A stretch of 53,722 nt of DNA from a virus. The DNA lies in the IMG/VR virus record IMGVR_UViG_3300020227_000034, positions 1 to 53,722 of that record. One strand, given 5' to 3'. This document shows, piece by piece, positions 1 to 53,722 of this stretch. Below the pieces are notes generated by a model. That model was not told the DNA's origin. It made no database searches and saw only the letters and a program-made list of their open reading frames with translations. The translations under genes and the position numbers were made by a program. Positions within the stretch are counted from its first letter, which is position 1; every line of letters starts with the position of its first letter.

Positions 1-55
1 CGTATTGTTTTGCTAGTTTTGCCCTATTACTAAAACTAGAGTCTACTTTGATAGA
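1..55. repeat. Terminal overlap copy 1 (identical to 53668..53722)
   Basis: Exact 55-nt identity read directly: cgtattgttttgctagttttgccctattactaaaactagagtctactttgataga. Confidence 0.95.
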
Positions 56-4932: not shown

Positions 4933-7860
4933 TTACAATTCTATGAATTGCTCTTCGGACGTTCCATCCTCGTAGTTAACTACTACTTTAATACCCACTT
5001 TTGCGTCTTGATGTTTTACAAGGTCCTCGGCAGCAATATAAGCAGAGAACGTATAGTTGTCTCGTGTTGATGGGTATACTGTTTGGTTAAGTTCTTGTTT
5101 AGTACCAGCACCACCGCCAACTATTTTAAACGAGTTATGGTTAGATACTCCGTTTAGGCTATCTACATATATATTACCCGAAGGTGTCCAATAATTCAAC
5201 CCCGAATCTGCTCGCGAGTTCTGTAGGTAGTTAAATATCATCATGTCCTGAATTTCTGTTTTATCTACGGCGTCGGCATTATCTAATCTACCTTCACCCT
5301 CTTGGCCTATAGCAGCGCCTTCATCACCGAGCTCTTTAATTTTTGTACTCAGTTGTAGTTTGGACTTCCACGGTTGTAGTAAATCTAATTTTCTGGACAC
5401 AATTTTAACTGGCACTAACTCGTTGAGCAAATCTTCTTCCTCAATTAAAGCTTGTGTTCTTAAATCAGGTATCTCGTGACTAAACTTAGGAAGCACAGAT
5501 AAATCTAAAATCTCGATTTCATATGACACAGTAGGCCTAGACCATTCAGCTAACTTTTCCACACCCTTCTCTTTTAAGTGAAAGATGTTATGGAACCGGT
5601 TATCCGTCCAGTCGGCTTCTTTAACAATTGCAGGCATCCCTCTATCTGTGAACCAAGAATAGTTCTCCAAGTAAGGGACGTTATTATTCGCAGGTGCAAT
5701 AGTTACTCCATTAGCACCGTAAGGGAATAACTTAGTAACAAGCCCTTGTGTGTTTATATTACGCTTGATACTCTTCATGTTTTTTCGCCTGCGGATGGAG
5801 TAGCCTGTGTCGATGTTTTTGTTTAGTAGGGACACTTGTTTGTTGACGTTATCAAATACAATGTCTCCGCCCCAAACCTCTTGGATACCCCGAATATGCT
5901 TAAGAGGATTCTGTTTCTTTTCTACCACATAATCCCGAAGTTCGAATCCGGGGTCAATAACACCGACAGTCCAACCCGTACCAGCAACTACATGTTTTAA
6001 TGGCTCATCAGGATAAACATCCCGAAAGTCTAAATTAGCTATTTTTGGTTTAGTTGCTAAGTCATACCAAGCAGCCTCACAATGGAACTCTCTAATCTTC
6101 TGCCCTTCCGCTGACACAGAGTCTGTGATATCTCTGATGTAAAATCTGTTATAAGGATTGCCTTTCTCATCTTCAATATCTACACGGAACTCATTGAAGA
6201 GCTCTTTAGCTTTTTGTGTGTACTTCATTCCGAAGGTCATAGTCTCATCACCATTATTAGCATCCTCTAAAATAGCAGATTCTAATTTATTTAGGTTGGC
6301 AACAAGCTTGTCGTTGTTATCGTACACCTTAGGTATCACCTTAACCACATTTACTACAGCTTGTGGTGATGTATCCTCAAAGGTTATTTCTTCTATAAGC
6401 GGCGTCCGCGCCCCATCATTACTTTTAAGTGTAAGCCTTACTTGAATGTGTCTGTAATTAGGCGATTGAATTCTACCTGCAGAGTCGACGACCAGCCAAT
6501 CGCTGAAGTTAATACCATCTGCAGATGTCCTGGTCTCAGCTACAAGTACTGTATAACCATATGGAGCATTACCCTTGATTTGTAACATACCAAGCTCTGG
6601 GAATGGATTCTGTAAATCAACTACAGGTGAAATATAAGTTCCCTCACTTACATACCGGCCACCTTCTTGTTTTAAAAGGATGGACCCTGGTTGAGAGCTA
6701 TAATCAATATTTACAGTTTCTACATCCCTGGAAGCCGTATAAAAGCTATGCAGGTCTGACGGTTGGTCATATGCATACTCTAAAAACCAACCAGAGAACC
6801 AGCCCTGAAACAAATAAGCACCATCCATATGTCCAAATGATAATGGCCTAGAATTTAGTGTTGTTGGTGGAGTATTAGCCCCATTATATAATAAGGGTAT
6901 CTCCACCGAACGCTCATTAACAGTTAGCATTAACGTAGTTGTACTTCGGTCATAGGCTAAAGCAATAAAATACTTCTGCCCAGCTACCAGTGATTCTCCA
7001 TAAATATTAGACCCATTTACTTGGTCGACGTTCTGGCTATAAATCCTGACATGTGGGATACCGTTATTTAGAGCTAGGTGAAATATAGGACTCTCACCAC
7101 TTCCCGACCTAGTAGTAGCAATCATAGCCCAAGTAGCCGATACATCAGATGCTGTAGGTTCAATCCAACCACCAATAGTCCAGCTATCCATATTTTCAAT
7201 GGGTTTTGATACTACAGCAGAGTCGAAGTTCTCAGATGTCTGCAATACTGAATCTACATAAAATTCAATATCATCTACGTAGACTAGGTTATCATTGCCA
7301 CCACCAGCACCATCGCGAATGTACTCTAGGCGGACAGTATGTGTTCCTTCTGTTAATGCTCGAGTGTATTGTGTCCAAGGGATTTCACCATCTACTTCAA
7401 TATCAATAACCCCATCAATATAAATACGTAAGTGGTCATAACGGTCCTCAGTCGATACATAATACATTAATCTGATTTCGCCTGTAGAACCAGTAGGTAC
7501 GTCAACAGTAAATTCTGTAGCTGAGATAGCTCCATAGTAATCATGCCCTGGATTTTGCGATACATAACAATGTGTACCAGAGTATGGGTGGGTAGTAGTT
7601 AATTCCCAATCCCCCTTAAAATTAAAGGCCGGATTCCAAATAACCTTGTTCTCTACGTTGACATAGGACCCATTCATTAAGATACCATCATCGTGTGCAT
7701 AATGACCCGTACCATAAAAAGTACCGTGGTAGCCATTACCAGAGTCATCAGTCCAAGTACCATCTGATAAGTTCCATAAAGCTCTAGTCTCTGGTTTATT
7801 TATTCTTTTACCTGAAAACTGTTGCATTGTTGTAATTATAGGGTATGCCATTATATCCAC
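4933..7860 (-). CDS. Tail tip protein (Tal-like; prophage tail endopeptidase-type region in the C-terminal half, LamG/concanavalin-like region in the N-terminal half)
   Basis: 975 aa, immediately after the Dit-like gene. The N-terminal WNLSDGTWTDDSGNGYHGTFYG is typical of LamG-type domains. Residues about 500 onward (VIPKVYDNNDKLVANL...RFYIRDITDS) resemble siphophage Tal N-terminal regions. Confidence 0.6.
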   Translation of the reverse strand: MDIMAYPIITTMQQFSGKRINKPETRALWNLSDGTWTDDSGNGYHGTFYGTGHYAHDDGILMNGSYVNVENKVIWNPAFNFKGDWELTTTHPYSGTHCYVSQNPGHDYYGAISATEFTVDVPTGSTGEIRLMYYVSTEDRYDHLRIYIDGVIDIEVDGEIPWTQYTRALTEGTHTVRLEYIRDGAGGGNDNLVYVDDIEFYVDSVLQTSENFDSAVVSKPIENMDSWTIGGWIEPTASDVSATWAMIATTRSGSGESPIFHLALNNGIPHVRIYSQNVDQVNGSNIYGESLVAGQKYFIALAYDRSTTTLMLTVNERSVEIPLLYNGANTPPTTLNSRPLSFGHMDGAYLFQGWFSGWFLEYAYDQPSDLHSFYTASRDVETVNIDYSSQPGSILLKQEGGRYVSEGTYISPVVDLQNPFPELGMLQIKGNAPYGYTVLVAETRTSADGINFSDWLVVDSAGRIQSPNYRHIQVRLTLKSNDGARTPLIEEITFEDTSPQAVVNVVKVIPKVYDNNDKLVANLNKLESAILEDANNGDETMTFGMKYTQKAKELFNEFRVDIEDEKGNPYNRFYIRDITDSVSAEGQKIREFHCEAAWYDLATKPKIANLDFRDVYPDEPLKHVVAGTGWTVGVIDPGFELRDYVVEKKQNPLKHIRGIQEVWGGDIVFDNVNKQVSLLNKNIDTGYSIRRRKNMKSIKRNINTQGLVTKLFPYGANGVTIAPANNNVPYLENYSWFTDRGMPAIVKEADWTDNRFHNIFHLKEKGVEKLAEWSRPTVSYEIEILDLSVLPKFSHEIPDLRTQALIEEEDLLNELVPVKIVSRKLDLLQPWKSKLQLSTKIKELGDEGAAIGQEGEGRLDNADAVDKTEIQDMMIFNYLQNSRADSGLNYWTPSGNIYVDSLNGVSNHNSFKIVGGGAGTKQELNQTVYPSTRDNYTFSAYIAAEDLVKHQDAKVGIKVVVNYEDGTSEEQFIEL
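5784..5795 (+). repeat. Oriented 12-mer TTCRCCTGCGGR, copy 1
   Basis: ttcgcctgcgga. Confidence 0.8.
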
Positions 7861-24440: not shown

Positions 24441-24569
24441 TAATACTCCTCCTCCCAGTCCTTCCGGAACTGTTCTTATACTTAGTATACCATACTTTAC
24501 GTCCGAAATCACTTGCAGAGTATAAGGCGCGATTGTGTTTTGTATAAGAGACTAGCGCTCCGCCGCCCC

Positions 24570-24938
24570 TTAGCCGAGCACGACGGTCGCATTATTATGT
24601 GCGTATTTAGTTGCTCCCTTATATGTCTTGTAAGTCTTAACGAAGTCGCCTTCAATGTCAATTGTTACCTCTCCGTACTTAACTGATACCCCGTGATAGT
24701 AAACATCGTATTCGTCCTCTTCGTCAGCTATTTCAATATATGTAATATCCGCGTTATCGATTGCACTTTCTAGCTCTTCGTTGTACTCGTTATATAGTAT
24801 TTCAACCTTACCTGCTAATTCAATTAGTGTAGCTCTTTCGATTACTTCTTGACGACGCGTACCCTCATCAACCCATTCCACTGTAAAGAATACGTCCTCT
24901 TCGATTTCTTCTACTTTGATAATTTCGATTGTTTTCAT
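24570..24938 (-). CDS. Highly acidic hypothetical protein
   Basis: 122 aa, roughly a quarter Asp/Glu. RBS AAAGGGGAAAA. Confidence 0.6.
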   Translation of the reverse strand: MKTIEIIKVEEIEEDVFFTVEWVDEGTRRQEVIERATLIELAGKVEILYNEYNEELESAIDNADITYIEIADEEDEYDVYYHGVSVKYGEVTIDIEGDFVKTYKTYKGATKYAHNNATVVLG

Positions 24939-24963
24939 TTTATTTTCCCCTTTCTTTATCTTA

Positions 24964-24992
24964 TATATAAATTATAATATAGTCTGACTCAA
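24964..24992 (-). promoter_or_regulatory. Weaker promoter candidate TTGAGT-N17-TATATA
   Basis: Minus strand reads ggccttTTGAGTcagactatattataattTATATA. Located after terminator 25024..25059. Confidence 0.4.
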
Positions 24993-25023
24993 AAGGCCAC
25001 CCGTATAGCAAAACTTTTTGACC

Positions 25024-25059
25024 GAAAATAAAATAAGTAGGAGGTGCGAGTTCCTACTT
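25024..25059 (-). terminator. Intrinsic terminator after 25061..25321
   Basis: Minus RNA: AAGUAGGA-acucgcacc-UCCUACUU, then AUUUUAUUUU. Confidence 0.75.
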
Positions 25060-25060
25060 A

Positions 25061-25321
25061 TTACTTGAATCTGGACTGCAGTTCTGCTAGCCTGTTATTT
25101 TCTTCTATTAGTTCATATTCGGCTTGATGTAATTTATCGTACCTAGCTATGATACGGTCTATGTTCTTTAAATGTTCGATAATATGTTTGCGCTCTAATC
25201 GATTCCTGGATGCCTTTAAGTTTTCGTATACCCTAGCTTTTTCAAACATCCATTCTGATTTAGACCTTATTCGGCTCTCTTCCATGTACTCTAGATAATT
25301 CCTGCTCATCGTTGCTACCAT
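25061..25321 (-). CDS. Hypothetical protein
   Basis: 86 aa, helical and charged. Downstream of promoter 25369..25397. Followed by terminator 25024..25059. Confidence 0.6.
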   Translation of the reverse strand: MVATMSRNYLEYMEESRIRSKSEWMFEKARVYENLKASRNRLERKHIIEHLKNIDRIIARYDKLHQAEYELIEENNRLAELQSRFK

Positions 25322-25368
25322 TATTTGAATCTCTCCTTTTGTGTTTATCTCGTACCTCCTATAATTAT

Positions 25369-25397
25369 ATTATACTAGAGTTTGCCTTTAAAGTCAA
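25369..25397 (-). promoter_or_regulatory. Promoter TTGACT-N17-TATAAT
   Basis: Minus strand reads ttaggTTGACTttaaaggcaaactctagTATAAT. Confidence 0.7.
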
Positions 25398-25510
25398 CCT
25401 AAATTTGTGAGATTTTGGACCGAAAAATTTTTTCAGATTTTTATTTTTAGTGTAGCGGAATTTTCGGAATATTCATAATTATCTGCTCACGTTTTCTCTG
25501 AAAAAATATG

Positions 25511-25612
25511 CGTATATATATAAAAAACATTCATGTTTATTAACCAGAAAGAAAGTCCTAAAAAAGTGAATTTAAGTAACCAAAAAATTCACTTTTTCTA
25601 TGGTTTGGTTAT
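25511..25612. repeat. Left arm of an imperfect about 100-nt inverted repeat
   Basis: cgtatatatataaaaaacattcatgtttattaaccagaaaga...aaaaaagtgaattt...attcact... aligns with the reverse complement of 25841..25942. By eye, about 80 percent of positions match. Confidence 0.7.
25560..25597. promoter_or_regulatory. Palindromic pair of AAAAGTGAAT boxes (candidate operator / iteron)
   Basis: AAAAAAGTGAATTTaagtaaccaAAAAATTCACTTTTT. Confidence 0.6.
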
Positions 25613-25658
25613 GCGAAATCAACATTAATTTAAAAGTTTCTTTTTCGCAAAAAATAAA

Positions 25659-25673
25659 GCAAAAGTGAATCTG
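25659..25673 (+). promoter_or_regulatory. Single AAAAGTGAAT box
   Basis: gcAAAAGTGAATctg. Confidence 0.45.
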
Positions 25674-25695
25674 ATATATATATATATAAATATAT
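25674..25695. repeat. (TA)n-rich tract (candidate DNA unwinding element)
   Basis: atatatatatatatataaatatat, read directly. Confidence 0.8.
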
Positions 25696-25727
25696 CAAAA
25701 TAAAAAGAAGAAGACTTCCCCAACTAT

Positions 25728-25756
25728 ATTATACTATATTTTACTTCTCAAGTCAC
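25728..25756 (-). promoter_or_regulatory. Promoter-like GTGACT-N17-TATAAT in the centre of the inverted-repeat region, with no ORF downstream
   Basis: Minus strand reads ccaGTGACTtgagaagtaaaatatagTATAATatagttGGGGAAG. Confidence 0.45.
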
Positions 25757-25826
25757 TGGGTCCTGGAATACACCCTTAAGGCCCGGGGGCGGGGAGGTCT
25801 CCTCGCGGCATCTAGCCGTCGTCGTA
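25757..25826. other. GC-rich island in an otherwise AT-rich non-coding region
   Basis: tgggtcctggaatacacccttaaggcccgggggcggggaggtctcctcgcggcatctagccgtcgtcgtac. It contains the hairpin GCGGGGA-ggtc-TCCTCGC and the palindromes CCTTAAGG and CCCGGG. Confidence 0.7.
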
Positions 25827-25840
25827 CAGTATTTTTCTAT

Positions 25841-25942
25841 TAACAAAACCATTAAATTAGTGAATTATTTGCTACAGAAAATTCACTTTTTTGCGAAATC
25901 TTTCTAGTTAATAAACTTGAATGTTTTTTATATATGTATACG
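25841..25942. repeat. Right arm of the inverted repeat
   Basis: The reverse complement reads cgtatacatatataaaaaacattcaagtttattaactagaaaga...aaaaaagtgaattt...attcact... Confidence 0.7.
25857..25892. promoter_or_regulatory. Inverted pair of AGTGAAT boxes
   Basis: tTAGTGAATtatttgctacagAAAATTCACTTTTTT. Confidence 0.55.
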
Positions 25943-25945
25943 TAT

Positions 25946-25978
25946 TTTTAAAATAAAAACAGCGATTTTACTCGCTGT
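25946..25978 (-). terminator. Intrinsic terminator after 26059..26793
   Basis: Minus RNA: ACAGCGA-guaaaa-UCGCUGU, then UUUUUAUUUU. Confidence 0.8.
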
Positions 25979-25994
25979 CTGACTTTTTGGGTTT

Positions 25995-26006
25995 ATCACC
26001 TGCGGA
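25995..26006 (+). repeat. Oriented 12-mer, copy 7 (intergenic)
   Basis: atcacctgcgga. Confidence 0.8.
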
Positions 26007-26058
26007 TGGTACGCGGTAAGCTTTGCCCTTTAGATATTTAGTGTTGCGCTTGACTCTT

Positions 26059-26793
26059 TTATCTCTTTGACCTGCTTTTGTTCTTTTGACTGACACGCTT
26101 TTTATACCTCCTTACTTCTGATATTGGTGTGCCGTCTTTTAACATAGAATATATTTTACGTGCGAAGTCCCAATCGGTAAATGTATGATCGTAGACCACT
26201 ACGTAGTCCCAACCTTTTAACCCTCCAACGTCTTCCCAGTATTCTTTACGTACTACTATTCTCGCTGGTCGAGGAAGGTCGTTACCTGTTTGTTTCATTG
26301 TGATGAAGTATCGTGTACCACCGACAGTAAAGGTATCACTTTTACTCTCGTGTTGGGGTTCCCACGTCTTCTGATTTTTAAGTGAACCGTATCCTCTCTT
26401 GATTCGCTTAGCATATTGCCAGAAGCCTTGGTTATTAATGCTATCTCTATAGTACTGTGCAGCATAGGCTCTATAACCAACCTTGCTACCACACTGCTCT
26501 ACAATTGTTTTTCTGTGTAAAATAATTGCATTTATTAGCTTATCTACTTCTGACAATGCAAAGTACTCTCTTTTATCGCGTCTGAAGTATTCATTCAAAT
26601 TAGTTAGTAAATTGAAGCGATATTTTAGGTGTTTCTTACCATGATGGTCGCTAATACGTAAGCTATGCGAAGCCCCATAATCCATTTTTATATAGATGCT
26701 CTTACTGGACCTACTGTCGTACCTTTGAATAATAAACCCCTCTTGCAATAATCGGTCAATGATATATACTGCAGCTTGTTTAGCACTTCTCAT
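26059..26793 (-). CDS. Hypothetical protein with a very basic C-terminal tail (possible nucleic-acid-binding protein)
   Basis: 244 aa, ending RRYKKRVSQKNKSRSKR. ATGA coupling to the upstream mini-ORF. Followed by terminator 25946..25978. Borders the inverted-repeat region. Confidence 0.6.
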   Translation of the reverse strand: MRSAKQAAVYIIDRLLQEGFIIQRYDSRSSKSIYIKMDYGASHSLRISDHHGKKHLKYRFNLLTNLNEYFRRDKREYFALSEVDKLINAIILHRKTIVEQCGSKVGYRAYAAQYYRDSINNQGFWQYAKRIKRGYGSLKNQKTWEPQHESKSDTFTVGGTRYFITMKQTGNDLPRPARIVVRKEYWEDVGGLKGWDYVVVYDHTFTDWDFARKIYSMLKDGTPISEVRRYKKRVSQKNKSRSKR

Positions 26794-27609: not shown

Positions 27610-27819
27610 TTATTCGTCCTCCCCTTCAAAAGATTGAAATAATTTATCAAAGCATTTTCCACAGATACCGGAAATCACGATTTCCCTAATATTCGCGGAC
27701 ACATGTGGTAATGCATCCTGGATACGAACCCCTTGTTGTAACTTTTTGATTTGGTTATCTGTAGCTTTAAAATGATACTCGGTTTTACAATCCTGACATT
27801 CTACATAGTATGTTTGCAT
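27610..27819 (-). CDS. Zinc-ribbon protein
   Basis: 69 aa with CQDC...CGKC cysteine pairs. RBS AAGGAGG. Downstream of promoter 27854..27882. Confidence 0.6.
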   Translation of the reverse strand: MQTYYVECQDCKTEYHFKATDNQIKKLQQGVRIQDALPHVSANIREIVISGICGKCFDKLFQSFEGEDE

Positions 27820-27853
27820 TGTTTATGTTCCTCCTTATTTATCTTATATATTA

Positions 27854-27882
27854 ATTATAATACAGGTGAACTCCAAAGTCAA
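27854..27882 (-). promoter_or_regulatory. Promoter TTGACT-N17-TATAAT
   Basis: Minus strand reads TTGACGggTTGACTttggagttcacctgtatTATAAT. Confidence 0.7.
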
Positions 27883-27993
27883 CCCGTCAATAGCATTTGG
27901 ACACGATTTTTCACCGAATAACTATACGCAGCAATCTGTTTCCAATTAAATATTTAAAGAAAAACCAGCAAATAAATGATGGCTTTTAAGTTA

Positions 27994-29372: not shown

Positions 29373-29419
29373 CTGATTCCTCCTCTTAAATTTTTAGAAG
29401 ATTAATTATCTTCTATACT

Positions 29420-29455
29420 TATAATATAAAAGAGGTTAACTCTAAAGTCAACCCC
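29420..29455 (-). terminator. Intrinsic terminator after the dUTPase-like gene
   Basis: Minus RNA: GGGGUUGAC-uuuaga-GUUAACCUC (two G-U pairs), then UUUUAUAUU. Confidence 0.65.
29423..29451 (-). promoter_or_regulatory. Promoter TTGACT-N17-TATATT, embedded in terminator 29420..29455
   Basis: Minus strand reads aggggTTGACTttagagttaacctctttTATATT. Confidence 0.6.
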
Positions 29456-34608: not shown

Positions 34609-34722
34609 TATTTAAATTCCTCCTAAGTGTTTGTTTTTTCTTACCTTATATTTATATTATAACCCATAATCCTCAAAAGTACACCCCGAAAGTCGAACTT
34701 TTTGGTTTTATTTTTAATTTGT

Positions 34723-39091: not shown

Positions 39092-39764
39092 GTTTCTCCT
39101 CCCACCATTTATCAAAATCGATATTTTCGGTACCAATTGCCTTAGCTAGATAGATAGCCACGTCCACTAATTCTTTCTTCAGGTTATCTTGGTCCCCAGC
39201 ATCCAGTGCCGATAGCTCGTACACTTCTTCAGCAATCTCTCCAGCCTCTCCATTTAAAGCTAATGCTAGGTATGCCATATTCTGATGCTCTTTAGGTATT
39301 ACAGCTGTGGTTGGATTATCAATTAGGAAACCACTTAGCCCATCAATGTTAGCTGTAATCTTGTCCAAACGTTCGTGTGACATCCCGTCCCGGATTAACT
39401 TCTTGACGTCATCCGCAATCTCTCCAGCTATCTTATTTATTACTAAGGCAAATACAACCGTACCGTGTAATGATTCAGGGATGTCCATTGTTGTCTTATA
39501 ACCCTTCTCTTTATCAAATGCCAGGACTTCATTTACCATACGTTCAAAACGACCCTCGGAAAGCATATCATTCATTTCTTTAAGTCGTACCGTAGCTTTA
39601 TATACACCTGCGGAGTTACGGTTAACGAATCCTTTTCGAAATAGATTTGTTAACCTTTCTTCTGAAGCATTCGGTACTTGTTGTAGGTACTCTTCCTTTG
39701 TAAACTCACCCAACATTGCAACCTGTCTAATTTCTATTTTATGTTCATTTACGTCGAAGCTCAT
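39069..39764 (-). CDS. Tandem MazG-like nucleoside triphosphate pyrophosphohydrolase
   Basis: 231 aa with two EExxE-type segments (INKIAGEIADDVKKL and LNGEAGEIAEEVYEL ... ELVDVAIYL). Confidence 0.6.
   Translation of the reverse strand: MSFDVNEHKIEIRQVAMLGEFTKEEYLQQVPNASEERLTNLFRKGFVNRNSAGVYKATVRLKEMNDMLSEGRFERMVNEVLAFDKEKGYKTTMDIPESLHGTVVFALVINKIAGEIADDVKKLIRDGMSHERLDKITANIDGLSGFLIDNPTTAVIPKEHQNMAYLALALNGEAGEIAEEVYELSALDAGDQDNLKKELVDVAIYLAKAIGTENIDFDKWWEEKHDELRKR
39602..39613 (+). repeat. Oriented 12-mer, copy 9
   Basis: tacacctgcgga. Confidence 0.8.
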
Positions 39765-39993
39765 TCTTGATTTCCTCCTCTGACTTTGTTGAGCTAATTA
39801 TGTTTTCGTATGCAGTGTGTAAGAAGATCTTACCTCCGACTGCTGTATAGTCATGCCCACCTTTACCAACAAAAGCACAGTAGGCTTTGTCAATCTTAAC
39901 TAGTTCTTCAACTACACGGTCCCATGCTTCTTGAAAGGAAATCTCTTTTTGACTATTAATTTTGTCCTGCTTTTTACGTTGACGTTTGTTCAT
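39745..39993 (-). CDS. Hypothetical protein
   Basis: 82 aa with RBS GGGAGGG. Downstream of promoter 40142..40170. Confidence 0.55.
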   Translation of the reverse strand: MNKRQRKKQDKINSQKEISFQEAWDRVVEELVKIDKAYCAFVGKGGHDYTAVGGKIFLHTAYENIISSTKSEEEIKNELRRK

Positions 39994-40141
39994 TACGAAC
40001 CCTCCCAGATTAGATAGAAAGCGAGGTTACCCCCGCCTACTATATTAGAATTTATCCCATTCATTTTCAAATTCTCTTACTCTAGCCCTAAACATTTGTT
40101 GTCCGTAGCTTCACTATCGCTCACCTCCCATCTCTATAAAT

Positions 40142-40170
40142 ATTATACTACAAGATAGGCGAACTATCAA
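40142..40170 (-). promoter_or_regulatory. Promoter TTGATA-N17-TATAAT
   Basis: Minus strand reads agccTTGATAgttcgcctatcttgtagTATAAT, directly after the folE stop. Confidence 0.6.
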
Positions 40171-40172
40171 GG

Positions 40173-40805
40173 CTACCTCTTCATTAAATCTAGTATTTCC
40201 ATCCGGGCCGACATATTCTCTCTGAACAACCCTCTCATGGTAGAAGTAGTAGTAGTAGCATCTTTCTTTTTAATACCACGTCCACACATACAATAATGCG
40301 CAGCTTCTATTACGACTGCAACAGCCTTCGGTTGAAGGACCTCATCTATTGCATCTGCAATCTGTTGTGTTAAGCGTTCCTGTACCTGGAAGCGCTGTGC
40401 GTATCCATCAACTACTCTTGCAAATTTAGACAATCCCGCAACAGACTTACTCGGGATGTATGCAATATGCGCCTTACCATAAAATGGTGCGAAGTGGTGC
40501 TCACATAGGCTGTTAAAGTCTATGTCTTTAATTAATACAATGTCATCATGCTCGACTTCGAATTCTTTTGTTAAGTGTTGTTTTGGGTCCTCACGATATC
40601 CTTTGGTATATTCCAGGTAAGCCTTAACGACACGGAAAGGAGTTTCCTCCAAACCGTCTCGTGTAGGGTCATCACCACATACCTCAATTACCTTAGAAAT
40701 ACTATCCATCGCTTCTTCTAAGTCCATCTCTTGTTTGAAATCTAAGAAGGACGTATCTAATACTTTTTCTAATTTCCCACGTTGCTCATCATTCATTCTG
40801 TACAT
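40173..40805 (-). CDS. folE: GTP cyclohydrolase I
   Basis: 210 aa with the diagnostic CEHHFAPF zinc/active-site motif and C-terminal HYCMCGRG. Confidence 0.9.
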
Positions 40806-40810
40806 GTTAT

Positions 40811-41566
40811 CTACACCTTTCTCTTATTAGCCCATACAAGGGTATGAAGTTGTGGTAATGGTTTGATATCATTAGCTTCTGGGTCATCTATAACTTTATT
40901 CCAAAGCCAGTCTAATTTAGTAAGAAGACGTCCGGAGATATCGCCTTCTTCGTGTGCATCCTCGTTTCCGACTGAAACAAAGAATTCCGCCTGCGGGTAT
41001 CTGTTGTGTACGTACTTGGCGTGCTCGAAGTCTTCGTCATCGAATACAACGACCTTCAGTGTATAATTAGTATCTGCTTCATCCAATTTTTCAATGATGT
41101 CATCCAGTCGCTGCCAGTTAGTTTTCATTAATGAACTCGGTGGCTTAGGACTGATTGTTAGATCATCGATATCACGGAACCAATCCTTCCAGAATGACCC
41201 TTGTGTTTCTAATCCTACCTTTATACCTGACTCGTGACACATATTGATTAGGTCCTGCATTGGCTGTGCTATCAATGCTGGGTTACCTCCAGAAATAGTT
41301 ACGTGGTCAAAGTTTAATTTACCTGACTCTTTATCTGTACCTAATTCCAGTAAGGTCTCAAATACATCTTCAGCTGATTTCAGTTGTGCCTTCTCTTCCC
41401 CATTCCAAGTGAATGCTGAGTCACACCATGCACAACTGTAATCACAACCACCTGTCCTAACGAACATTGTCTTACGTCCGATGACCATTCCTTCACCTTG
41501 AATAGTCGGTCCAAATATTTCCATAATAGGCATACGTTTTGGTTTACGTGCTTTAGTCTCTGCCAT
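40811..41566 (-). CDS. queE: 7-carboxy-7-deazaguanine synthase (radical SAM)
   Basis: 251 aa. Radical-SAM cluster motif [10 protein letters not shown], an N-terminal QGEG segment and the GGNP motif. Confidence 0.85.
40986..40997 (+). repeat. Oriented 12-mer, copy 10
   Basis: tccgcctgcggg. Confidence 0.8.
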
Positions 41567-41694
41567 GTTTGTCCTCCTCTACTTTGTCTAACCAGTTTTG
41601 TAACTTGGTGCATTGTTTATTCTCTCGGACACCGAATCTATGCAAATATTCAGGTACCCCACCAAGTGCTTTGAAATGGAGTACCTCTTTAATA

Positions 41695-42123
41695 CTAATT
41701 ATGCTTAGGACGATATACTACATATGACGTAGGCGTCTCGCGGAGAATAACTTGTAAACATTCGGCACCAAGCCCTTCACTATCTAGGTAGTGTTGGATA
41801 GTAATGTAAATCCATTCGGCTACATTTTCTGTTGATGGAATAGTACCTCCATCGGTAATATCAAATTCATGATGGTCATTCAATACTGTGTGGTCATATT
41901 TTTTATGGACTAATTTTTTAAGTGATTGAAAGTTAACTAAGAAACCATCTTCTCCAACTTCATCACCTACAATGGTAATATTCACAAAGTAAGTATGTCC
42001 ATGTAATTGTTGACACTTACCCGCACTTGGATGTGGTACAAGATGTGCTGCAGCGAAGTGCATGTCCTTATTTAATTCGAATCGTTTGTTATGAGGTGTT
42101 GTTGGATAAAACTGTTGTAACAT
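41695..42123 (-). CDS. queD: 6-carboxy-5,6,7,8-tetrahydropterin synthase
   Basis: 142 aa of the PTPS fold, with AAH..P......C..LHGHTY zinc-ligand signature. Confidence 0.85.
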   Translation of the reverse strand: MLQQFYPTTPHNKRFELNKDMHFAAAHLVPHPSAGKCQQLHGHTYFVNITIVGDEVGEDGFLVNFQSLKKLVHKKYDHTVLNDHHEFDITDGGTIPSTENVAEWIYITIQHYLDSEGLGAECLQVILRETPTSYVVYRPKHN

Positions 42124-42341
42124 TACTCTTCCTCCTCTAATAGTGTATATTCAAATCCAGCTAACAGTTCAGGTGAATTACCGACAATGAAATTAGAATC
42201 ATAAATCATTTTACCGACTACATCGTCGCCCTCTTGTACTGCTGGGATGTACCTACAAAATACTGCAAACTCATCATCGGCCACAATACAACCGAAGATG
42301 CCTTCATCTACATTTATCATGGTACCCTTTTCAAAGACCAT
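42123..42341 (-). CDS. Hypothetical protein embedded in the que operon
   Basis: 72 aa. Start and stop each share a base with the neighbouring genes (tight coupling). Confidence 0.55.
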   Translation of the reverse strand: MVFEKGTMINVDEGIFGCIVADDEFAVFCRYIPAVQEGDDVVGKMIYDSNFIVGNSPELLAGFEYTLLEEEE

Positions 42342-42727
42342 TATACATTCTCCTTTATTTGTAGACCTTTATTTCTGGTCCTAACTAATAATGGGCTAGC
42401 TTGTTTAAGGAAGCTCTCCCAAAGCAAGTTATGGTTCCTACCGTTTACTTTCTTGCTGGCGAACACTGGTCGTGTCCATTCTTGTTGTATGCAACGATAA
42501 GAGTAGTTAATGTACCTATAAGCATCGTTCTTGAGGTTCTCGAAAGCTACTCCATGGTCAATCTTTCTCCAACGCCTATTCGACAAGTAGACATCTTCTA
42601 AAAACTCGGCAGGTGATAAACCATCTAAACCTCCAGGATGCTCGTCTGATAGTACTGCATAGAGGTGGGGGAAGATTTCCCCATCAGCTTCTATACGTTC
42701 ATATAACCAAATCTCTTTACGTCCCAT
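42341..42727 (-). CDS. Hypothetical protein embedded in the que operon
   Basis: 128 aa, 15 nt downstream of queC. I recognise no family. Confidence 0.55.
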   Translation of the reverse strand: MGRKEIWLYERIEADGEIFPHLYAVLSDEHPGGLDGLSPAEFLEDVYLSNRRWRKIDHGVAFENLKNDAYRYINYSYRCIQQEWTRPVFASKKVNGRNHNLLWESFLKQASPLLVRTRNKGLQIKENV

Positions 42728-42742
42728 TATTGTATTCGCCCC

Positions 42743-43399
42743 TTATTTTTTGTATTTGATAGGGTCTTCATAACCCGCTTCTTCGAATGCTGCTAATCTT
42801 AGTTGACACGTAGGACAAGTACCACATGAAGGTACAGTTCCTCTATAACATGAATGAGTTAATTCTAGTGGTGCACCTATTCTCATGGCTTCTTTAACTA
42901 CATCAGATTTATGTTTCTTTAAGAATGGTGCCCTTATTTCCACATTACCAGCTGTACCATGTTTCAATGCTGCAAACATATATATGAAGTAAACTGCTGT
43001 AGTATCTGGATAACCTCCGTGGTCCTCTGCATGTGCACCATAATAAATGTAGTCAGCATTAATACTGTCTGCTACACCTGCGGCTATGGATAAGAAGATG
43101 GAGTTCCTCGCTGGTACGTATGTTGCGCCGACCGAACCTTTATCTTGGTCGTCTTTTATGTCTTCACCGTGCTGTAATAATGAAGAGTTGAAATTTGCGA
43201 ATGTTGACGATAGGTCAAATTCTGTATATGAATCTAACTCCAACACTTTAGCTATCTTCCTAGCACTCTCCATTTCTACGTCATGTTTTTGCCCGTAATA
43301 CATGTTTAAGGCATGTACCTCATCGTTCTCTCTTTTTGCTATAGCTGCGCAGGTTGTGGAATCCATTCCACCAGATAATAATACTAGTGCCTTACTCAT
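42743..43399 (-). CDS. queC: 7-cyano-7-deazaguanine (preQ0) synthase
   Basis: The PP-loop motif LLSGGMDST and a C-terminal CxxCxxC zinc cluster (CGTCPTCQLR). Start chosen at 43399 with RBS GAGGAGG. Confidence 0.9.
   Translation of the reverse strand: MSKALVLLSGGMDSTTCAAIAKRENDEVHALNMYYGQKHDVEMESARKIAKVLELDSYTEFDLSSTFANFNSSLLQHGEDIKDDQDKGSVGATYVPARNSIFLSIAAGVADSINADYIYYGAHAEDHGGYPDTTAVYFIYMFAALKHGTAGNVEIRAPFLKKHKSDVVKEAMRIGAPLELTHSCYRGTVPSCGTCPTCQLRLAAFEEAGYEDPIKYKK
43073..43084 (+). repeat. Oriented 12-mer, copy 11
   Basis: tacacctgcggc. Confidence 0.8.
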
Positions 43400-43621
43400 A
43401 ATGTTCCTCCTCATAATTTGGTTGGGGTTTATAGTCACTATTCAACACAGTTTCTGTTGAGCGGCCTAACTTTTTGTAAGGTCTACGTTTTAATAAATTC
43501 AAATCAGCTAAACTTGCATAGTATTCTTCAGCCAGCGGCTAAATCTGCTATCTCTCCCATTACTATCACTCCTTTTATTTAAGGAGATAAGAAACTGTTA
43601 ATCTCTTATCTCTTTAAATAT

Positions 43622-46595: not shown

Positions 46596-47195
46596 TTATT
46601 TTAGTGTTGGTTCTTTATCGTCAAAGTATTCACCATAAGCTAAACAATCATCACACTCCCATTTACCGTCAGGGTAAATAACAATATCAGAAACCCCGCA
46701 GTCTGGGTTAATACATTTATCTGGTGGTCCGAATTCGCCTGCCGAGGTTGGTTCATTGATTGGCGCCTCCGCCCCGTGTTGTTCCGCCTGTAATTCATCT
46801 ATCCAGGAAGTGTCTGCTACTATCTCTTTTGGTGTTGTGTTAGCTTTCATTTTATCTTCATATTCAGTGATGATACTCTTCTTACGTTTTGGTAAATGCT
46901 CACCGTATTCCACTTTAATATCACCATCAAATAAATCCTCTACAAAGCGATAAATGATTCTCTTTAAATTCGCTGTAGAGTCTTCCTCCAACTCTTCCAC
47001 TTTCGTTTTGTCAAAGAAGAAGGTCATTGCTATATAGTCAGGCTCTTCTTGGTGGCCCATAGAACGTAACTGCCTAACATATTGTGACACCCTGGAGGGT
47101 GTGGTTCCTAGTTCTTCTGCTATATCTTTCTGACTCATTCCTTCTGCTAACAACTCTGTCACATATTCAAGTTTATCTAAAGTGGTTTGCCTCAT
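46596..47195 (-). CDS. HTH (sigma-70 region 4 / LuxR-like) DNA-binding protein with a C-terminal zinc ribbon
   Basis: 199 aa. LAEGMSQKDIAEELGTTPSRVSQYVRQL is a classic HTH. C-terminal CINPDC...CDDC. Directly downstream of the box-containing regulatory region and promoter 47220..47248. Confidence 0.65.
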   Translation of the reverse strand: MRQTTLDKLEYVTELLAEGMSQKDIAEELGTTPSRVSQYVRQLRSMGHQEEPDYIAMTFFFDKTKVEELEEDSTANLKRIIYRFVEDLFDGDIKVEYGEHLPKRKKSIITEYEDKMKANTTPKEIVADTSWIDELQAEQHGAEAPINEPTSAGEFGPPDKCINPDCGVSDIVIYPDGKWECDDCLAYGEYFDDKEPTLK

Positions 47196-47219
47196 ACAAT
47201 ATCTCCTCCTCTATTAATA

Positions 47220-47248
47220 ATTATAATGGAGTAGAGGCTAAATATCAA
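47220..47248 (-). promoter_or_regulatory. Promoter TTGATA-N17-TATAAT for the HTH/primase-helicase operon
   Basis: Minus strand reads ATTCACTTTTTTgcaTTGATAtttagcctctactccatTATAAT. An AGTGAAT box abuts the -35. Confidence 0.65.
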
Positions 47249-47251
47249 TGC

Positions 47252-47272
47252 AAAAAAGTGAATTTAAGTTAC
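47252..47272 (+). promoter_or_regulatory. AAAAAAGTGAATTTAAGT box abutting the -35 of promoter 47220..47248
   Basis: 20 of 21 nt identical to 25560..25580 (aaaaaagtgaatttaagt[t/a]ac). Confidence 0.6.
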
Positions 47273-47403
47273 GTCTATTATATGTATAAATGTAAAATAT
47301 AGCTATATATCAAAAACAATATTCAAGTAATGTTTCTAGCAAGTTTTATAGAAAAAAGTTAATTATAATAAATTTTTAAAGATACATAGGCTTCCCCTCT
47401 TTA

Positions 47404-47432
47404 AGTATAACATAGAAGTATAAATAAATCAA
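47404..47432 (-). promoter_or_regulatory. Promoter TTGATT-N17-TATACT inside the 47.2-47.7 kb non-coding region
   Basis: Minus strand reads ctgTTGATTtatttatacttctatgtTATACTtaaagaGGGGAAG. The same GGGGAAG follows the -10 of promoter 25728..25756. Confidence 0.45.
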
Positions 47433-47532
47433 CAGTCCCTTACATACATTTAACAATACAAAGAAACATTACAAAAACATTAGTTTTGACTTAGTAGGAT
47501 TTGTGTTTTAGTTCCTTAAAACCAGAGGACGT

Positions 47533-47565
47533 AAAAATTCACTTTTGTAAAGAAAATTCACAAAA
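47533..47565 (-). promoter_or_regulatory. Two tandem boxes (AAAAGTGAAT and the variant TTTTGTGAAT on the minus strand)
   Basis: Plus strand reads aaaaATTCACTtttgtaaagaaaATTCACAaaa. Confidence 0.5.
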
Positions 47566-47605
47566 CCAAGGACTAATTGCACTTAAAGAAACTTGAATCT
47601 TTTTT

Positions 47606-47616
47606 GAAGTGAATAT
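47606..47616 (+). promoter_or_regulatory. AGTGAAT box
   Basis: gaAGTGAATat. Confidence 0.4.
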
Positions 47617-47669
47617 GTATTTTTTAACAAAATAATAGCATGAGAGGTTGAAATATTGCAAAAACTTAA

Positions 47670-47701
47670 AACAACAAAAAGAAAACCCTCCGGAGAGGGT
47701 T
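47670..47701 (-). terminator. Intrinsic terminator after the SSB-like gene
   Basis: Minus RNA: AACCCUC-uccg-GAGGGUU, then UUCUUUUUGUUGUUUU. Confidence 0.8.
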
Positions 47702-47708
47702 AACTTAA

Positions 47709-53173: not shown

Positions 53174-53722
53174 TCACCTCCTAACAGTTGCTGAAGTGTT
53201 TGGTCCTACATAAATGTTTCGCTTGCCTCGACTTGTTTTAATTGTAACTACATTAGGATAAGGCTCGTCTAGAATATCATAAGTGAGCCCACCAAAAGCC
53301 GCAGGTGTTAAATACCAGCTAATGTTTTTGCTTACTGGTTGTACATCTAATGTGTACGTACCCCAGGTCTTAGCACTAGCAGGTAAATGTACCGTTCCTT
53401 TGGATTGCTTATTTTGTTTAGGCTTCTTTCCCTTACGTAATGCTTTGAGTAAGCGTAAGTTTTGTGATGCAGTACCACGGTAATTGTTAATTCCATATTC
53501 ACCTGCAAGGTCTTTTCTGGCACTGAAACTAGAAGGTCTATTATGGAAATTTAGGTAGTCTACCACTGAAGTGCCAGTATATTCGCCTTTACCCGGGTCC
53601 TTACCACTTCTGAGATATTCTAGTAATCGTAGATTTTGGTCTGGAGTACCCTTGTAATTTTTAATGCCGTATTGTTTTGCTAGTTTTGCCCTATTACTAA
53701 AACTAGAGTCTACTTTGATAGA
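53174..53722 (-). CDS. Endolysin, C-terminal part: two about 45-aa cell-wall-binding repeats plus a C-terminal SH3b-like region. Continues from 784..1.
   Basis: The frame is open from 53722 to the stop at 53174 and is in phase with 784..1. Repeats: IVTYLNSIKVDSSFSNRAKLAKQYGIKNYKGTPDQNLRLLEYL and VVDYLNFHNRPSSFSARKDLAGEYGINNYRGTASQNLRLLKAL. The joined ORF is 425 aa. Confidence 0.85.
   Translation of the reverse strand, partial: SIKVDSSFSNRAKLAKQYGIKNYKGTPDQNLRLLEYLRSGKDPGKGEYTGTSVVDYLNFHNRPSSFSARKDLAGEYGINNYRGTASQNLRLLKALRKGKKPKQNKQSKGTVHLPASAKTWGTYTLDVQPVSKNISWYLTPAAFGGLTYDILDEPYPNVVTIKTSRGKRNIYVGPNTSATVRR
53668..53722. repeat. Terminal overlap copy 2 (identical to 1..55)
   Basis: Exact 55-nt identity. 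It lies inside the endolysin ORF. Confidence 0.95.

Follow-up and report, generated by a model that had tools for sequence, protein, structure and literature searches.

A conserved two-copy cis element in a siphovirus related to phages Youna2 and BSP7: candidate transcription-coupled replication origins

The DNA described here (the window: 53,722 nucleotides, the full length of the IMG/VR record IMGVR_UViG_3300020227_000034) is the genome of a siphovirus, a Bacillus-type phage and kin of Weizmannia phage Youna2 and the Bacillus phages BSP7 and BSP19. Two large intergenic gaps of this genome contain copies of the same cis element, which we refer to as R1 and R2. Sequence comparison identifies R1 and R2 as a real, conserved two-copy element of a little-studied phage clade, for which we infer a function: with a probability of about 0.4, the two copies are a pair of transcription-coupled replication origins that double as operon promoters, and we read them as a variant of known phage origin and promoter elements. 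Phages of the Youna2/BSP7 type, whose hosts are Bacillus subtilis and Weizmannia coagulans, were isolated for use in biocontrol.

Results and discussion

R1 is located at the head of the packaging module, with terS 1.2-1.3 kb downstream, and is taken here as positions 25491-25960, while R2 is bounded at about 47250-47640 (Table 1). An earlier note, made from the sequence of the window, had described a gene-free region of 660 bp at the position of R1. The large gap exists, but a conserved gene for a 42-amino-acid (aa) protein at 25968-26096 (minus strand) intrudes, so that the true gap extends from 25322 to 25967. The inverted arms, which had been placed at 25511..25612 and 25841..25942 with about 80% matching positions, are present and actually longer, 25491-25618 facing 25834-25960 at 76% identity (E ~5e-23 within the genome). 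A 30-mer taken from the arm occurs at only two sites of the genome, which are the two arms, with 0 expected by chance. The predicted palindromic pair of AGTGAAT boxes was found in each arm, at 25565-25593 and 25859-25887. These two AGTGAAT-N15-ATTCACT palindromes are the only ones in the genome (0 expected), and their spacers are identical in length (15 nt), yet differ at 7 of the 15 bases. A fifth AGTGAAT box of R1 lies at 25664-25670; altogether, 8 of the 16 genomic copies of this box fall inside the two large gaps, which together cover 2.2% of the sequence of the genome. The inverted hexamers GCGAAA and TTTCGC can be read directly at 25614-25619 and 25643-25648, and TTTCGCAAAAAA, from this stretch (25614..25648), pairs perfectly with 25887-25898.

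The centre of R1 combines a promoter with extremely labile DNA. Duplex stability was computed from nearest-neighbour energies, by which the previously noticed (TA)n tract, at 25674-25703, is the least stable 30-bp duplex of the whole genome (z ~4.6). The consensus-like promoter GTGACT-N17-TATAAT is likewise present and is located on the minus (gene) strand, reading from 25756 to 25728; its description as an orphan was wrong, as no terminator precedes the downstream gene. With its -10 hexamer at 25733-25728, the TA tract (25703-25674) corresponds to about +18 to +47 of the predicted transcript.

R1 has a paralogue 21.7 kb away. This second copy, R2, sits in the other large gap (47196-47708, 513 nt, 26% GC), which is flanked on one side by the SSB, Sak4 and exonuclease genes and on the other side by the genes for a helix-turn-helix (HTH) protein and a DnaG-MCM primase-helicase. 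The upstream arm of R2 was recovered with R1 at E 1.4e-4 genome-wide and has AGTGAAT boxes at 47537-47543 and 47608-47614. Both R2 arms are 64-67% identical to both R1 arms in matching orientations, and a box of R2, AAAAAAGTGAATTTAAGT (47252-47272), is identical to R1 25560-25580 at 20 of 21 nt. The two least stable 100-bp segments of the window are 47276-47375, within R2, followed by 25649-25748, within R1. Similarly, the two least stable 30-mers of Youna2 are located in R1 and R2, and in BSP7 this holds for the two least stable segments at both 30 and 100 bp.

Both elements are present in Youna2 and in BSP7/BSP19, where large gaps occur at the same two syntenic positions, so that the pair is found in three phage lineages. 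The order of the parts is common to the elements: terminator, arm, GC island (in R1 only), sigma-A-type promoter, G-rich start, AT-rich tract and inverted arm, with a second promoter usually ending the series. The six inner promoters all point in the gene direction, and the layout of promoter and AT-rich tract seen in R1 recurs in all six elements. The cores align across them as a -35 hexamer, 17-18 nt, TATAAT, 5-7 nt and G(G/A)G(G/A)A(A/G)(G/T)NCT, the predicted transcript start coinciding with a conserved G-rich sequence, GGGGAAGNCT. In each of the three phages, R1 and R2 supply the only two genomic occurrences of the composite of -10 hexamer and G-rich start, both on the gene strand; beyond about +12, the six predicted transcripts are AT-rich and unalignable. 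The Youna2 genome contains exactly four copies of its arm, one inverted pair per element (71-80% identity), and exactly four occurrences of the 11-mer GGAAAGGAGTG. The same arm pattern is seen in BSP7 and BSP19, here with boxes of the TGAAAGAAA type. The arms are similar within one genome, but they cannot be aligned between the phages.

A Youna2-like metagenome contig (L096) allowed a comparison at short distance. In R2 and the HTH gene this contig diverges from Youna2 by 3-4%, as opposed to ~0.3% further downstream; nevertheless, the central 155 nt of R2 carry no substitution, though 3% of the nucleotides are changed in the HTH gene next to it (188 of 191 residues of the protein being identical). 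By this comparison, the core of the element is apparently under selection. In the upstream arm of the L096 R2, three changes turn the box into its R1 version, which suggests gene conversion between R1 and R2; taken together with the likeness of the arms within a genome, these changes point to a cognate binding factor or to gene conversion. As a separate observation, close strains show a locally raised nucleotide divergence in R2 and the HTH gene (L096 1-1000 versus Youna2 39604-40600; window 46914-47054), and three of the five differences between the window and contig L014 also fall into this hot spot (window 46914-47054). As the changes in the hot spot are mostly synonymous, a recombination mosaic boundary is suggested.

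Beyond this group the element was not encountered. A DNA similarity search with R1 against phage records, plasmids, viral contigs and bacterial genomes returned none beyond the BSP group's own copies, and terL-anchored scans of metagenome and genome contigs returned nothing. The corresponding scan of viral contigs yielded a short contig (L001) and the phage L008, which lacks the element, while primase-anchored scans identified, besides the Youna2-like contig L096, only distant phages whose upstream regions are compact and different. A homologue search with the HTH protein found nothing but a 99% variant of itself. This distribution bears on the idea that R1 and R2 might be passive or mobile repeats with terminal inverted repeats at their ends, either MITE-like insertions (miniature inverted-repeat transposable elements) or an invertible promoter switch. 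Long inverted repeats do flank a promoter-bearing segment of about 215 bp, and the HTH protein weakly matches HTH domains of transposases and resolvases. However, the positions of the elements are constant in three lineages whose DNA no longer aligns, with only two copies per genome, both syntenic, and with no copies in plasmids, bacterial genomes or phage records outside the group. The arms are, at 72-79% likeness, poor substrates for recombination, and no flanking direct repeat as expected for a MITE or an insertion sequence is evident. The orientation of the promoter is the same in six of six elements, and a recombinase or transposase catalytic domain was not found among the proteins scanned from the open reading frames (ORFs). 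A mobile nature of R1 and R2 is, in our view, very improbable.

The mode of divergence of the arms argues for a role as DNA. Mismatches between paired arms are mostly transversions (25/35, 19/21 and 20/29) and show no G:U bias, wobble-compatible changes being equally rare on both strands; thus, the arms are unlikely to act as an RNA hairpin. Within the arms, which are 90-130 bp long, 72-79% alike in pairs and located 60-110 bp from the promoter core on each side, invariant blocks alternate with diverged spacers, the conserved blocks summing to ~70 nt per arm. This pattern fits composite protein-binding sites, for which the arms are candidates. Since the upstream arm lies outside the transcript of the inner promoter, the symmetry would work at the level of DNA.

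The earlier note had also raised the possibility of a noncoding RNA, which found no support in Rfam or in folding statistics. In this scenario, the inner promoter would direct the synthesis of a structured RNA, or the GC island would itself be an RNA gene, with a role in antitermination of the put/nut type or as a regulatory small RNA. The promoter is strong, the predicted transcript begins with 10 nt that are conserved in both copies of each genome, and several terminators exist in the downstream operons; paired conserved starts of this kind recall the putL/putR or nutL/nutR signals. However, no part of the window matched an Rfam family at the gathering threshold; with the cutoff relaxed to E<=10, 25300-26100 gave only noise (<=22 bits). 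A tRNA/tmRNA search of the window and its relatives found none. The GC island folds no better than its shuffled versions (z of -0.2 for the plus and +0.4 for the minus strand), and z values in the test for structured RNA ranged from -0.8 to +0.7. The lack of alignable sequence beyond about +12 in six AT-rich transcripts, the position of the upstream arm outside the transcript and the absence of a wobble bias in the arms further speak against an RNA, so that we regard this scenario as quite unlikely.

The GC island, located directly upstream of the R1 -35 hexamer, is the one part that sets R1 apart. It is indeed the most GC-rich 70-mer of the genome, while the hairpin ascribed to it is no more stable than expected from shuffling. 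An island occupies the same place in R1 of Youna2 and BSP19 and is absent from every R2, but the islands of the three phages cannot be aligned. An ORF of 34 codons across the island (25748-25852) was considered and rejected, as it has no ribosome-binding site (RBS) and is not kept in the relatives. A second GC-rich patch described upstream of terS (24550-24570) is not conserved in the relatives. We further observed a 13-nt identity, CGTCGTCGTACAG, between the island (window 25809-25821) and the terminator region of a SASP-like gene downstream of R1 in BSP19; as the match has a p of about 0.01 and lies in the opposite orientation relative to the genes, it is left as a curiosity. Within R1, the island alone constitutes a weak candidate for a packaging signal.

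In a packaging reading, which the earlier note had likewise proposed, R1 would be a recognition or cleavage site (cos/pac) in which the island is cleaved and the arms are bound by terminase, comparable to pacL and pacR around pacC of SPP1. R1 heads the packaging module, in all three phages the island is confined to R1, and the pac site of SPP1 has flanking TerS-binding regions (PMC6316719). Furthermore, the island (25757-25802, plus strand) shares the three blocks TGGGTCCT, GAATACAC and GGAGGTCTCC with a GC patch of L008 (positions 5769-5800 of IMGVR_UViG_3300045988_112549), which is located 60-100 nt upstream of a terL that is 67% identical to that of the window. The region of the L008 patch also holds three GTTAGGTGRGCC repeats, by which it looks like a cos/pac region in its own right. 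In contrast, the arms, the promoter and the start motif do not form a unique site next to the terminase genes, for which only the island would qualify, but are repeated at R2, which lies by the primase-helicase gene at a great distance from the packaging genes; this recurrence makes it unlikely that the arms and the TA tract are cos or pac. L008, despite its related terL, has a different replication module and no such arms. The similarity between the blocks is weak and was noticed post hoc, with 30 of 2178 background windows reaching the same level (p ~0.014), the blocks were found in no other relevant viral contig, and the islands of the three phages are unalignable. Overall, we consider a packaging function of R1 unlikely.

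Record and contig boundaries do not favour packaging either. The GenBank records of six BSP/BSTP isolates start at scattered points, and five of them run unbroken through R1 and its TA tract. The BSP7 record is linearised inside the (TA)n tract of R1 with a short duplicated end (L006 1-30, L007 1630-1656); a short end overlap of this kind is typical of an arbitrarily opened circle, and the opening was rejected as evidence for a terminus because the five sister records are continuous there. In the BSTP records, spurious ORFs are annotated inside R1, one of them as 'DNA primase'. Contig breaks in other samples occur in R1, in R2 and in the second GC patch, and repeats or low coverage fit these breaks better than physical ends. 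One contig (L003, Logan SRR7698814) is 100% identical to window 24555-25716 and begins 5 nt from the predicted transcription start. Contig ends were nevertheless rejected as marks of physical termini or of a transcription start, since breaks also occur in R2 and the second GC patch and since this run, judged from neighbouring accession numbers, seemingly comes from a decapod genome-skimming DNA project, in which the phage or its Bacillus host may be a contaminant of the sample or the reagents.

An origin function, also put forward in the earlier note, is strengthened by evidence that is confined to sequence: the paralogue next to the replication genes, the architecture conserved in two other lineages, and the position of the most easily melted tracts of the genome. 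According to this model, the sigma-A-type promoter of each copy, which is of the host type, would fire in the gene direction to produce an RNA with a G-rich beginning (GGGGAAGNCU), and this RNA would at once enter the DNA that is most easily unwound, (TA)n in R1 and the AT-rich tract in R2. The core is bracketed by the two inverted arms of ~90-130 bp built of conserved boxes (AGTGAAT-N15-ATTCACT in the window), and both arms would be occupied by a phage DNA-binding protein, possibly the HTH/zinc-ribbon protein or the variable C-terminal tail of the primase-helicase. Next, RNA synthesis begun at the inner promoter would open the AT tract or leave an RNA-DNA hybrid there; a G-rich start followed by AT-rich DNA is suggestive of an R-loop primer. 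Finally, the DnaG-MCM primase-helicase and the phage DNA polymerase A would begin synthesis at this site. By position, R2 would be the origin tied to the replication operon, like oriL of SPP1, and R1 would be the second, distant site just before the packaging genes, like oriR.

The parallel to SPP1 is the closest in overall plan. The two distant origins of SPP1 are similarly organised, with repeats and an AT-rich DNA unwinding element (DUE), and both are bound by gp38; the late region contains one of them, in an intergenic segment (PMC6316719). Here as well, a virulent Bacillus siphovirus would use two distant cis elements, one tied to the replication genes and the other intergenic in the late region and bracketed by transcription signals. 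Short boxes are clustered beside a candidate AT-rich unwinding element as in SPP1, and two distant copies with the same boxes are found in three phages. In SPP1 the boxes are arranged as direct repeats, in contrast to the inverted arms that flank both AT tract and promoter in R1 and R2; gene 38 contains oriL, whereas R1 and R2 are both intergenic, and there is no sequence similarity between the systems. A gp38-like origin binder accompanied by a helicase loader and a DnaB-type helicase (gp38, gp39 and gp40 in SPP1) was not found among the proteins scanned, which represent a part of the ORFs, the helicase being the DnaG-MCM fusion. Homologues of lambda O and DnaD are likewise absent from the proteins scanned. 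Boxes for the host initiator DnaA (TTATCCACA) do not occur in R1 or R2 at up to one mismatch, and a host DnaA-dependent origin is thus not indicated.

With regard to the core, R1 and R2 resemble origins that are activated by transcription. The minimal T4 origins oriF and oriG consist of a promoter and a downstream A+T-rich unwinding element at which the transcript forms an R-loop (PMC3016281), and this transcript stays annealed and primes synthesis (PMC3016281; PMC5043065). Transcriptional activation of origins is well documented for lambda and ColE1 (PMC5043065). In R1 and R2, the promoter is similarly aimed at a candidate A+T-rich unwinding element within ~100 bp, a layout that recalls T4 oriF (uvsY) and oriG (34), the primary origin of T7 and ColE1; here, the promoter points into the least stable DNA of the genome. 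However, the T4 origins have neither flanking inverted arms nor a common motif, while R1 and R2 share arms, -10 hexamer and start motif, and the promoters of R1 and R2 are of the host sigma-A type and depend neither on MotA nor on a phage polymerase.

Two further systems are similar in layout. The satellite phage P4 has two distant cis sites, ori and crr, with repeated boxes that are recognised by the C-terminal domain of its alpha primase-helicase. Two distant sites with common boxes and a primase-helicase fusion protein are thus shared with the window, but the P4 boxes are short iterons that surround neither a promoter nor a (TA)n tract, and alpha combines an archaeo-eukaryotic-type primase with an SF3 helicase instead of DnaG with MCM. 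In herpes simplex virus (HSV) oriS and oriL and in archaeal origins of the ORB-DUE-ORB type (ORB, origin recognition box), inverted initiator sites surround an AT-rich spacer, and the archaeal origins load MCM. R1 and R2 resemble these origins in layout only: inverted sites flank a melting tract, and the phage helicase has an MCM-type AAA+ domain. There is no homologue of Orc1/Cdc6 or UL9 here, the centre of symmetry is the promoter with the transcription start rather than the AT tract, and the arms are much longer and composite.

As to the protein that might bind the element, the HTH/zinc-ribbon protein is a candidate. Its gene keeps its place beside R2 in Youna2 and BSP7, and its closest matches are KorA, NarL/LuxR and sigma region 4, with KorA ranking best among solved structures; an AlphaFold model computed without an alignment was unusable (pLDDT 48). 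The C-terminal tail of the primase-helicase, ~90 aa in length, is the least conserved part of this protein among the three phages, and we assume, guessing from its sequence, that it may form a winged helix. As the tail is poorly conserved, it might be conjectured that it is this part which binds the arms. The 244-aa protein encoded upstream, which had been named as a further possible partner, is outside the system, since the relatives lack it at that position.

A close alternative, which we hold to be only somewhat less probable than origins, is that R1 and R2 are purely paralogous promoter-operator modules, heading the replication operon (R2) and the operon that leads into packaging (R1). The inner promoter would be looped out or blocked when a phage regulator such as the KorA-like HTH protein occupies the boxes of the two arms, and the GC island upstream of the R1 -35 hexamer would be an additional regulator site that gives R1 a different timing. 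Accordingly, each element has an inner and an outer sigma-A-type promoter in tandem, palindromic boxes with fixed spacing fit operators, and the island, at about -37 to -105, falls into the zone where activators bind. The likeness of the arms within a genome and their difference between phages is the pattern of a repressor-operator pair: in lambdoid OL/PL and OR/PR and in the KorA operators of RK2, paralogous promoter-operators similarly diverge between relatives together with their regulator.

Several points weigh directly against origins. The inner promoters are followed by no terminator before the next gene, and the inner promoter of the BSP7 R2 is the sole recognisable promoter for the replication operon (the HTH and primase genes), so that an ordinary promoter-operator module accounts for much of the anatomy. 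The nearest sequence relatives of the HTH protein (KorA, NarL and sigma region 4) are transcription regulators. The protein is well conserved in the three phages whereas the arms differ, and therefore it may read the conserved core instead of the phage-specific arms. Among the proteins scanned, the absence of homologues of known initiators (SPP1 gp38, lambda O and DnaD) adds to these points, as does the state of R2 in the window, a degenerate copy as seen from the low identity of its arms to those of R1. The origin model leaves the GC island unaccounted for, and the GC skew is monotonic and uninformative because all genes are on one strand.

The promoter-operator alternative has difficulties of its own. 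The arms, with their ~70 nt of conserved blocks and their distance from the core, are far larger than ordinary operators; lambdoid and KorA operators measure 12-17 bp and overlap the promoter, whereas the arms of R1 and R2 measure ~100 bp and are distal. The stability minima of three genomes and the conserved G-rich start are left unaccounted for and have no counterpart in those systems, no lysogeny module exists here, and the HTH helix has stayed conserved in phages with different arms. Because the promoters of R1 and R2 would drive the following operons as well, the readings as origins and as promoter-operators are mutually compatible.

Pursuing the origin model further, it might be speculated that R1 and R2 represent an origin design undescribed in a bacterial virus, in which DnaG-MCM is loaded onto an unwinding tract between inverted multi-box arms, a host-polymerase transcript starting with GGGGAAG both opens and primes the origin, and the GC island of R1 is the terminase site. 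We consider this full combination unlikely; if true, late replication and packaging would start from one nucleoprotein locus.

Table 1. Features of R1, R2 and the adjacent genes (positions in the window).
Feature	Position	Strand	Remarks
42-aa very basic protein gene	25968..26096	-	RBS AAGGAGG, GTG start; translation VSVKRTKAGQRDKRVKRNTKYLKGKAYRVPSAGDKPKKSDSE
Intrinsic terminator	25957..25980	-	9-pair stem and T-run; ends upstream transcription unit
R1 upstream (right) arm	25834..25960	.	128 nt, 76% identical to reverse complement of 25491-25618
Box pair AGTGAAT-N15-ATTCACT, right arm	25859..25887	.	one of 2 such palindromes genome-wide
GC-rich island	about 25756..25826	.	directly upstream of R1 -35; 70-mer, GC 0.67 versus mean 0.40
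R1 inner promoter GTGACT-17-TATAAT	25728..25756	-	reads to lower coordinates; aligns with all six inner promoters
R1 conserved G-rich start GGGGAAGTCT	25712..25721	-	starts 7 nt past -10 hexamer; predicted transcription start
(TA)n tract	25674..25703	.	candidate DNA unwinding element; stability minimum; 26-nt near-palindrome
GCGAAA...TTTCGC inverted hexamers	25614..25648	.	between TA tract and left arm
R1 downstream (left) arm	25491..25618	.	holds palindrome AGTGAAT-N15-ATTCACT at 25565-25593
R1 outer promoter TTGACT-17-TATAAT	25369..25397	-	for 86-aa gene; 79% identical to inner promoter over 34 nt
R2 upstream arm	47543..47632	.	67% identity over 91 nt to 25868-25957, direct orientation
R2 inner promoter TTGATT-17-TATACT	47404..47432	-	upstream TG; from core alignment of six elements
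R2 conserved start motif GGGGAAGCCT	47388..47397	-	
R2 AT-rich tract	47276..47375	.	least stable 100-bp duplex in genome; overlaps downstream arm 47283-47371
R2 outer promoter TTGATA-17-TATAAT	47220..47248	-	directly upstream of HTH gene
HTH/zinc-ribbon protein gene, 199 aa	46596..47195	-	N-terminal HTH (KorA/LuxR/sigma-region-4-like), C-terminal 4-Cys zinc ribbon
Primase-helicase fusion gene, 980 aa	43647..46589	-	DnaG-type zinc ribbon and Toprim primase joined to MCM-type AAA+ helicase; any origin would need to load it

Genome context and further observations

The first 55 nt of the window (1-55) are repeated exactly at 53668-53722; this marks the contig as a circle of ~53,667 bp whose point of opening is arbitrary, and the genome is complete. 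The 55-nt end repeat looks like an assembler k-mer overlap rather than a terminal repeat. The genome has a GC content of 40%, and every sizeable ORF is located on the minus strand. Its closest isolates are Youna2, BSP7, BSP19 and BSTP5/8/10/12, with TerL proteins 76-77% identical to that of the window, whereas the DNA of Youna2 and the BSP group does not align with the window DNA. The gene order, as taken from the protein-family scans and given in the direction of transcription, begins with helicase, exonuclease, Sak4-like annealing protein and SSB (DUF669), followed by the 513-nt gap with R2. Beyond this gap are the genes for the HTH protein, the DnaG-MCM primase-helicase, QueC/QueD/QueE/FolE and DNA polymerase A, and then ribonucleotide reductase and small genes up to the R1 gap. 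Past R1, genes for an 86-aa and a 122-aa protein precede terS, terL, portal, head, tail and lysis genes.

On its upstream side R1 is bounded by the gene for the 42-aa protein, whose stop codon is overlapped by the terminator at 25957..25980 and which itself overlaps the 3' end of the ORF for the 244-aa protein. The 42-aa protein is rich in lysine and arginine and unannotated; by eye and without a score, it looks similar to UKM63102, a 51-aa protein whose gene has the corresponding position in Youna2 (L004 3173-3328). In phages of the BSP group, a reverse-strand gene for a SASP-like protein is located between R1 and the next forward promoter (L005 3610-4100, BSP19). The GenBank record of BSP19 is ~930 bp longer than that of BSP7 and contains the SSB gene twice, the duplicate probably being an overlap from circular assembly.

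Further downstream, the leader of terS contains a conserved stem-loop, AGTCC-GNRA-GGACT, which has a TATACT -10-like hexamer on one side and the ribosome-binding site on the other. Four phages share it (window 24455-24475, minus strand; L004 5277-5296; L005 5274-5292; L001 990-1008), and its stem shows at least one compensatory change (GTCC/GGAC versus TTCC/GGAA); a consensus fold of the terS leader from an automatic alignment contained no pairs. A family of AT-rich intergenic sequences (…TATATTATAATTTATATATAAGATAAAGAAAGGGG…) occurs upstream of several genes at 24930-25010, 27811-27895, 29402-29454 and 34649-34722. It probably represents the common promoter and leader of one temporal class, unlike the inner promoters of R1 and R2.

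The genes for FolE, QueE, QueD and QueC (40173-43438, minus strand) constitute a 7-deazaguanine (queuosine-precursor) gene set that Youna2 and BSP7 carry as well. From the occurrence of this set, the phage DNA is probably modified at G; a transglycosylase of the DpdA type was not identified among the ORFs scanned.

Conclusions

R1 and R2 define two cis elements as candidate organisers of replication and of middle-to-late transcription in Youna2/BSP7-like phages, and precise experimental targets can now be named: the predicted transcription start, the boxes, the unwinding tract and the candidate binding proteins. Should R1 and R2 be promoter-operator modules only, the result would be an ordinary one. 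The arms could also be used as parts in phage engineering, e.g. for infection-dependent replicons. If R1 and R2 are origins, they would provide a tractable bacterial model, in a genetically easy host, of how an MCM-type helicase is loaded at a defined origin.

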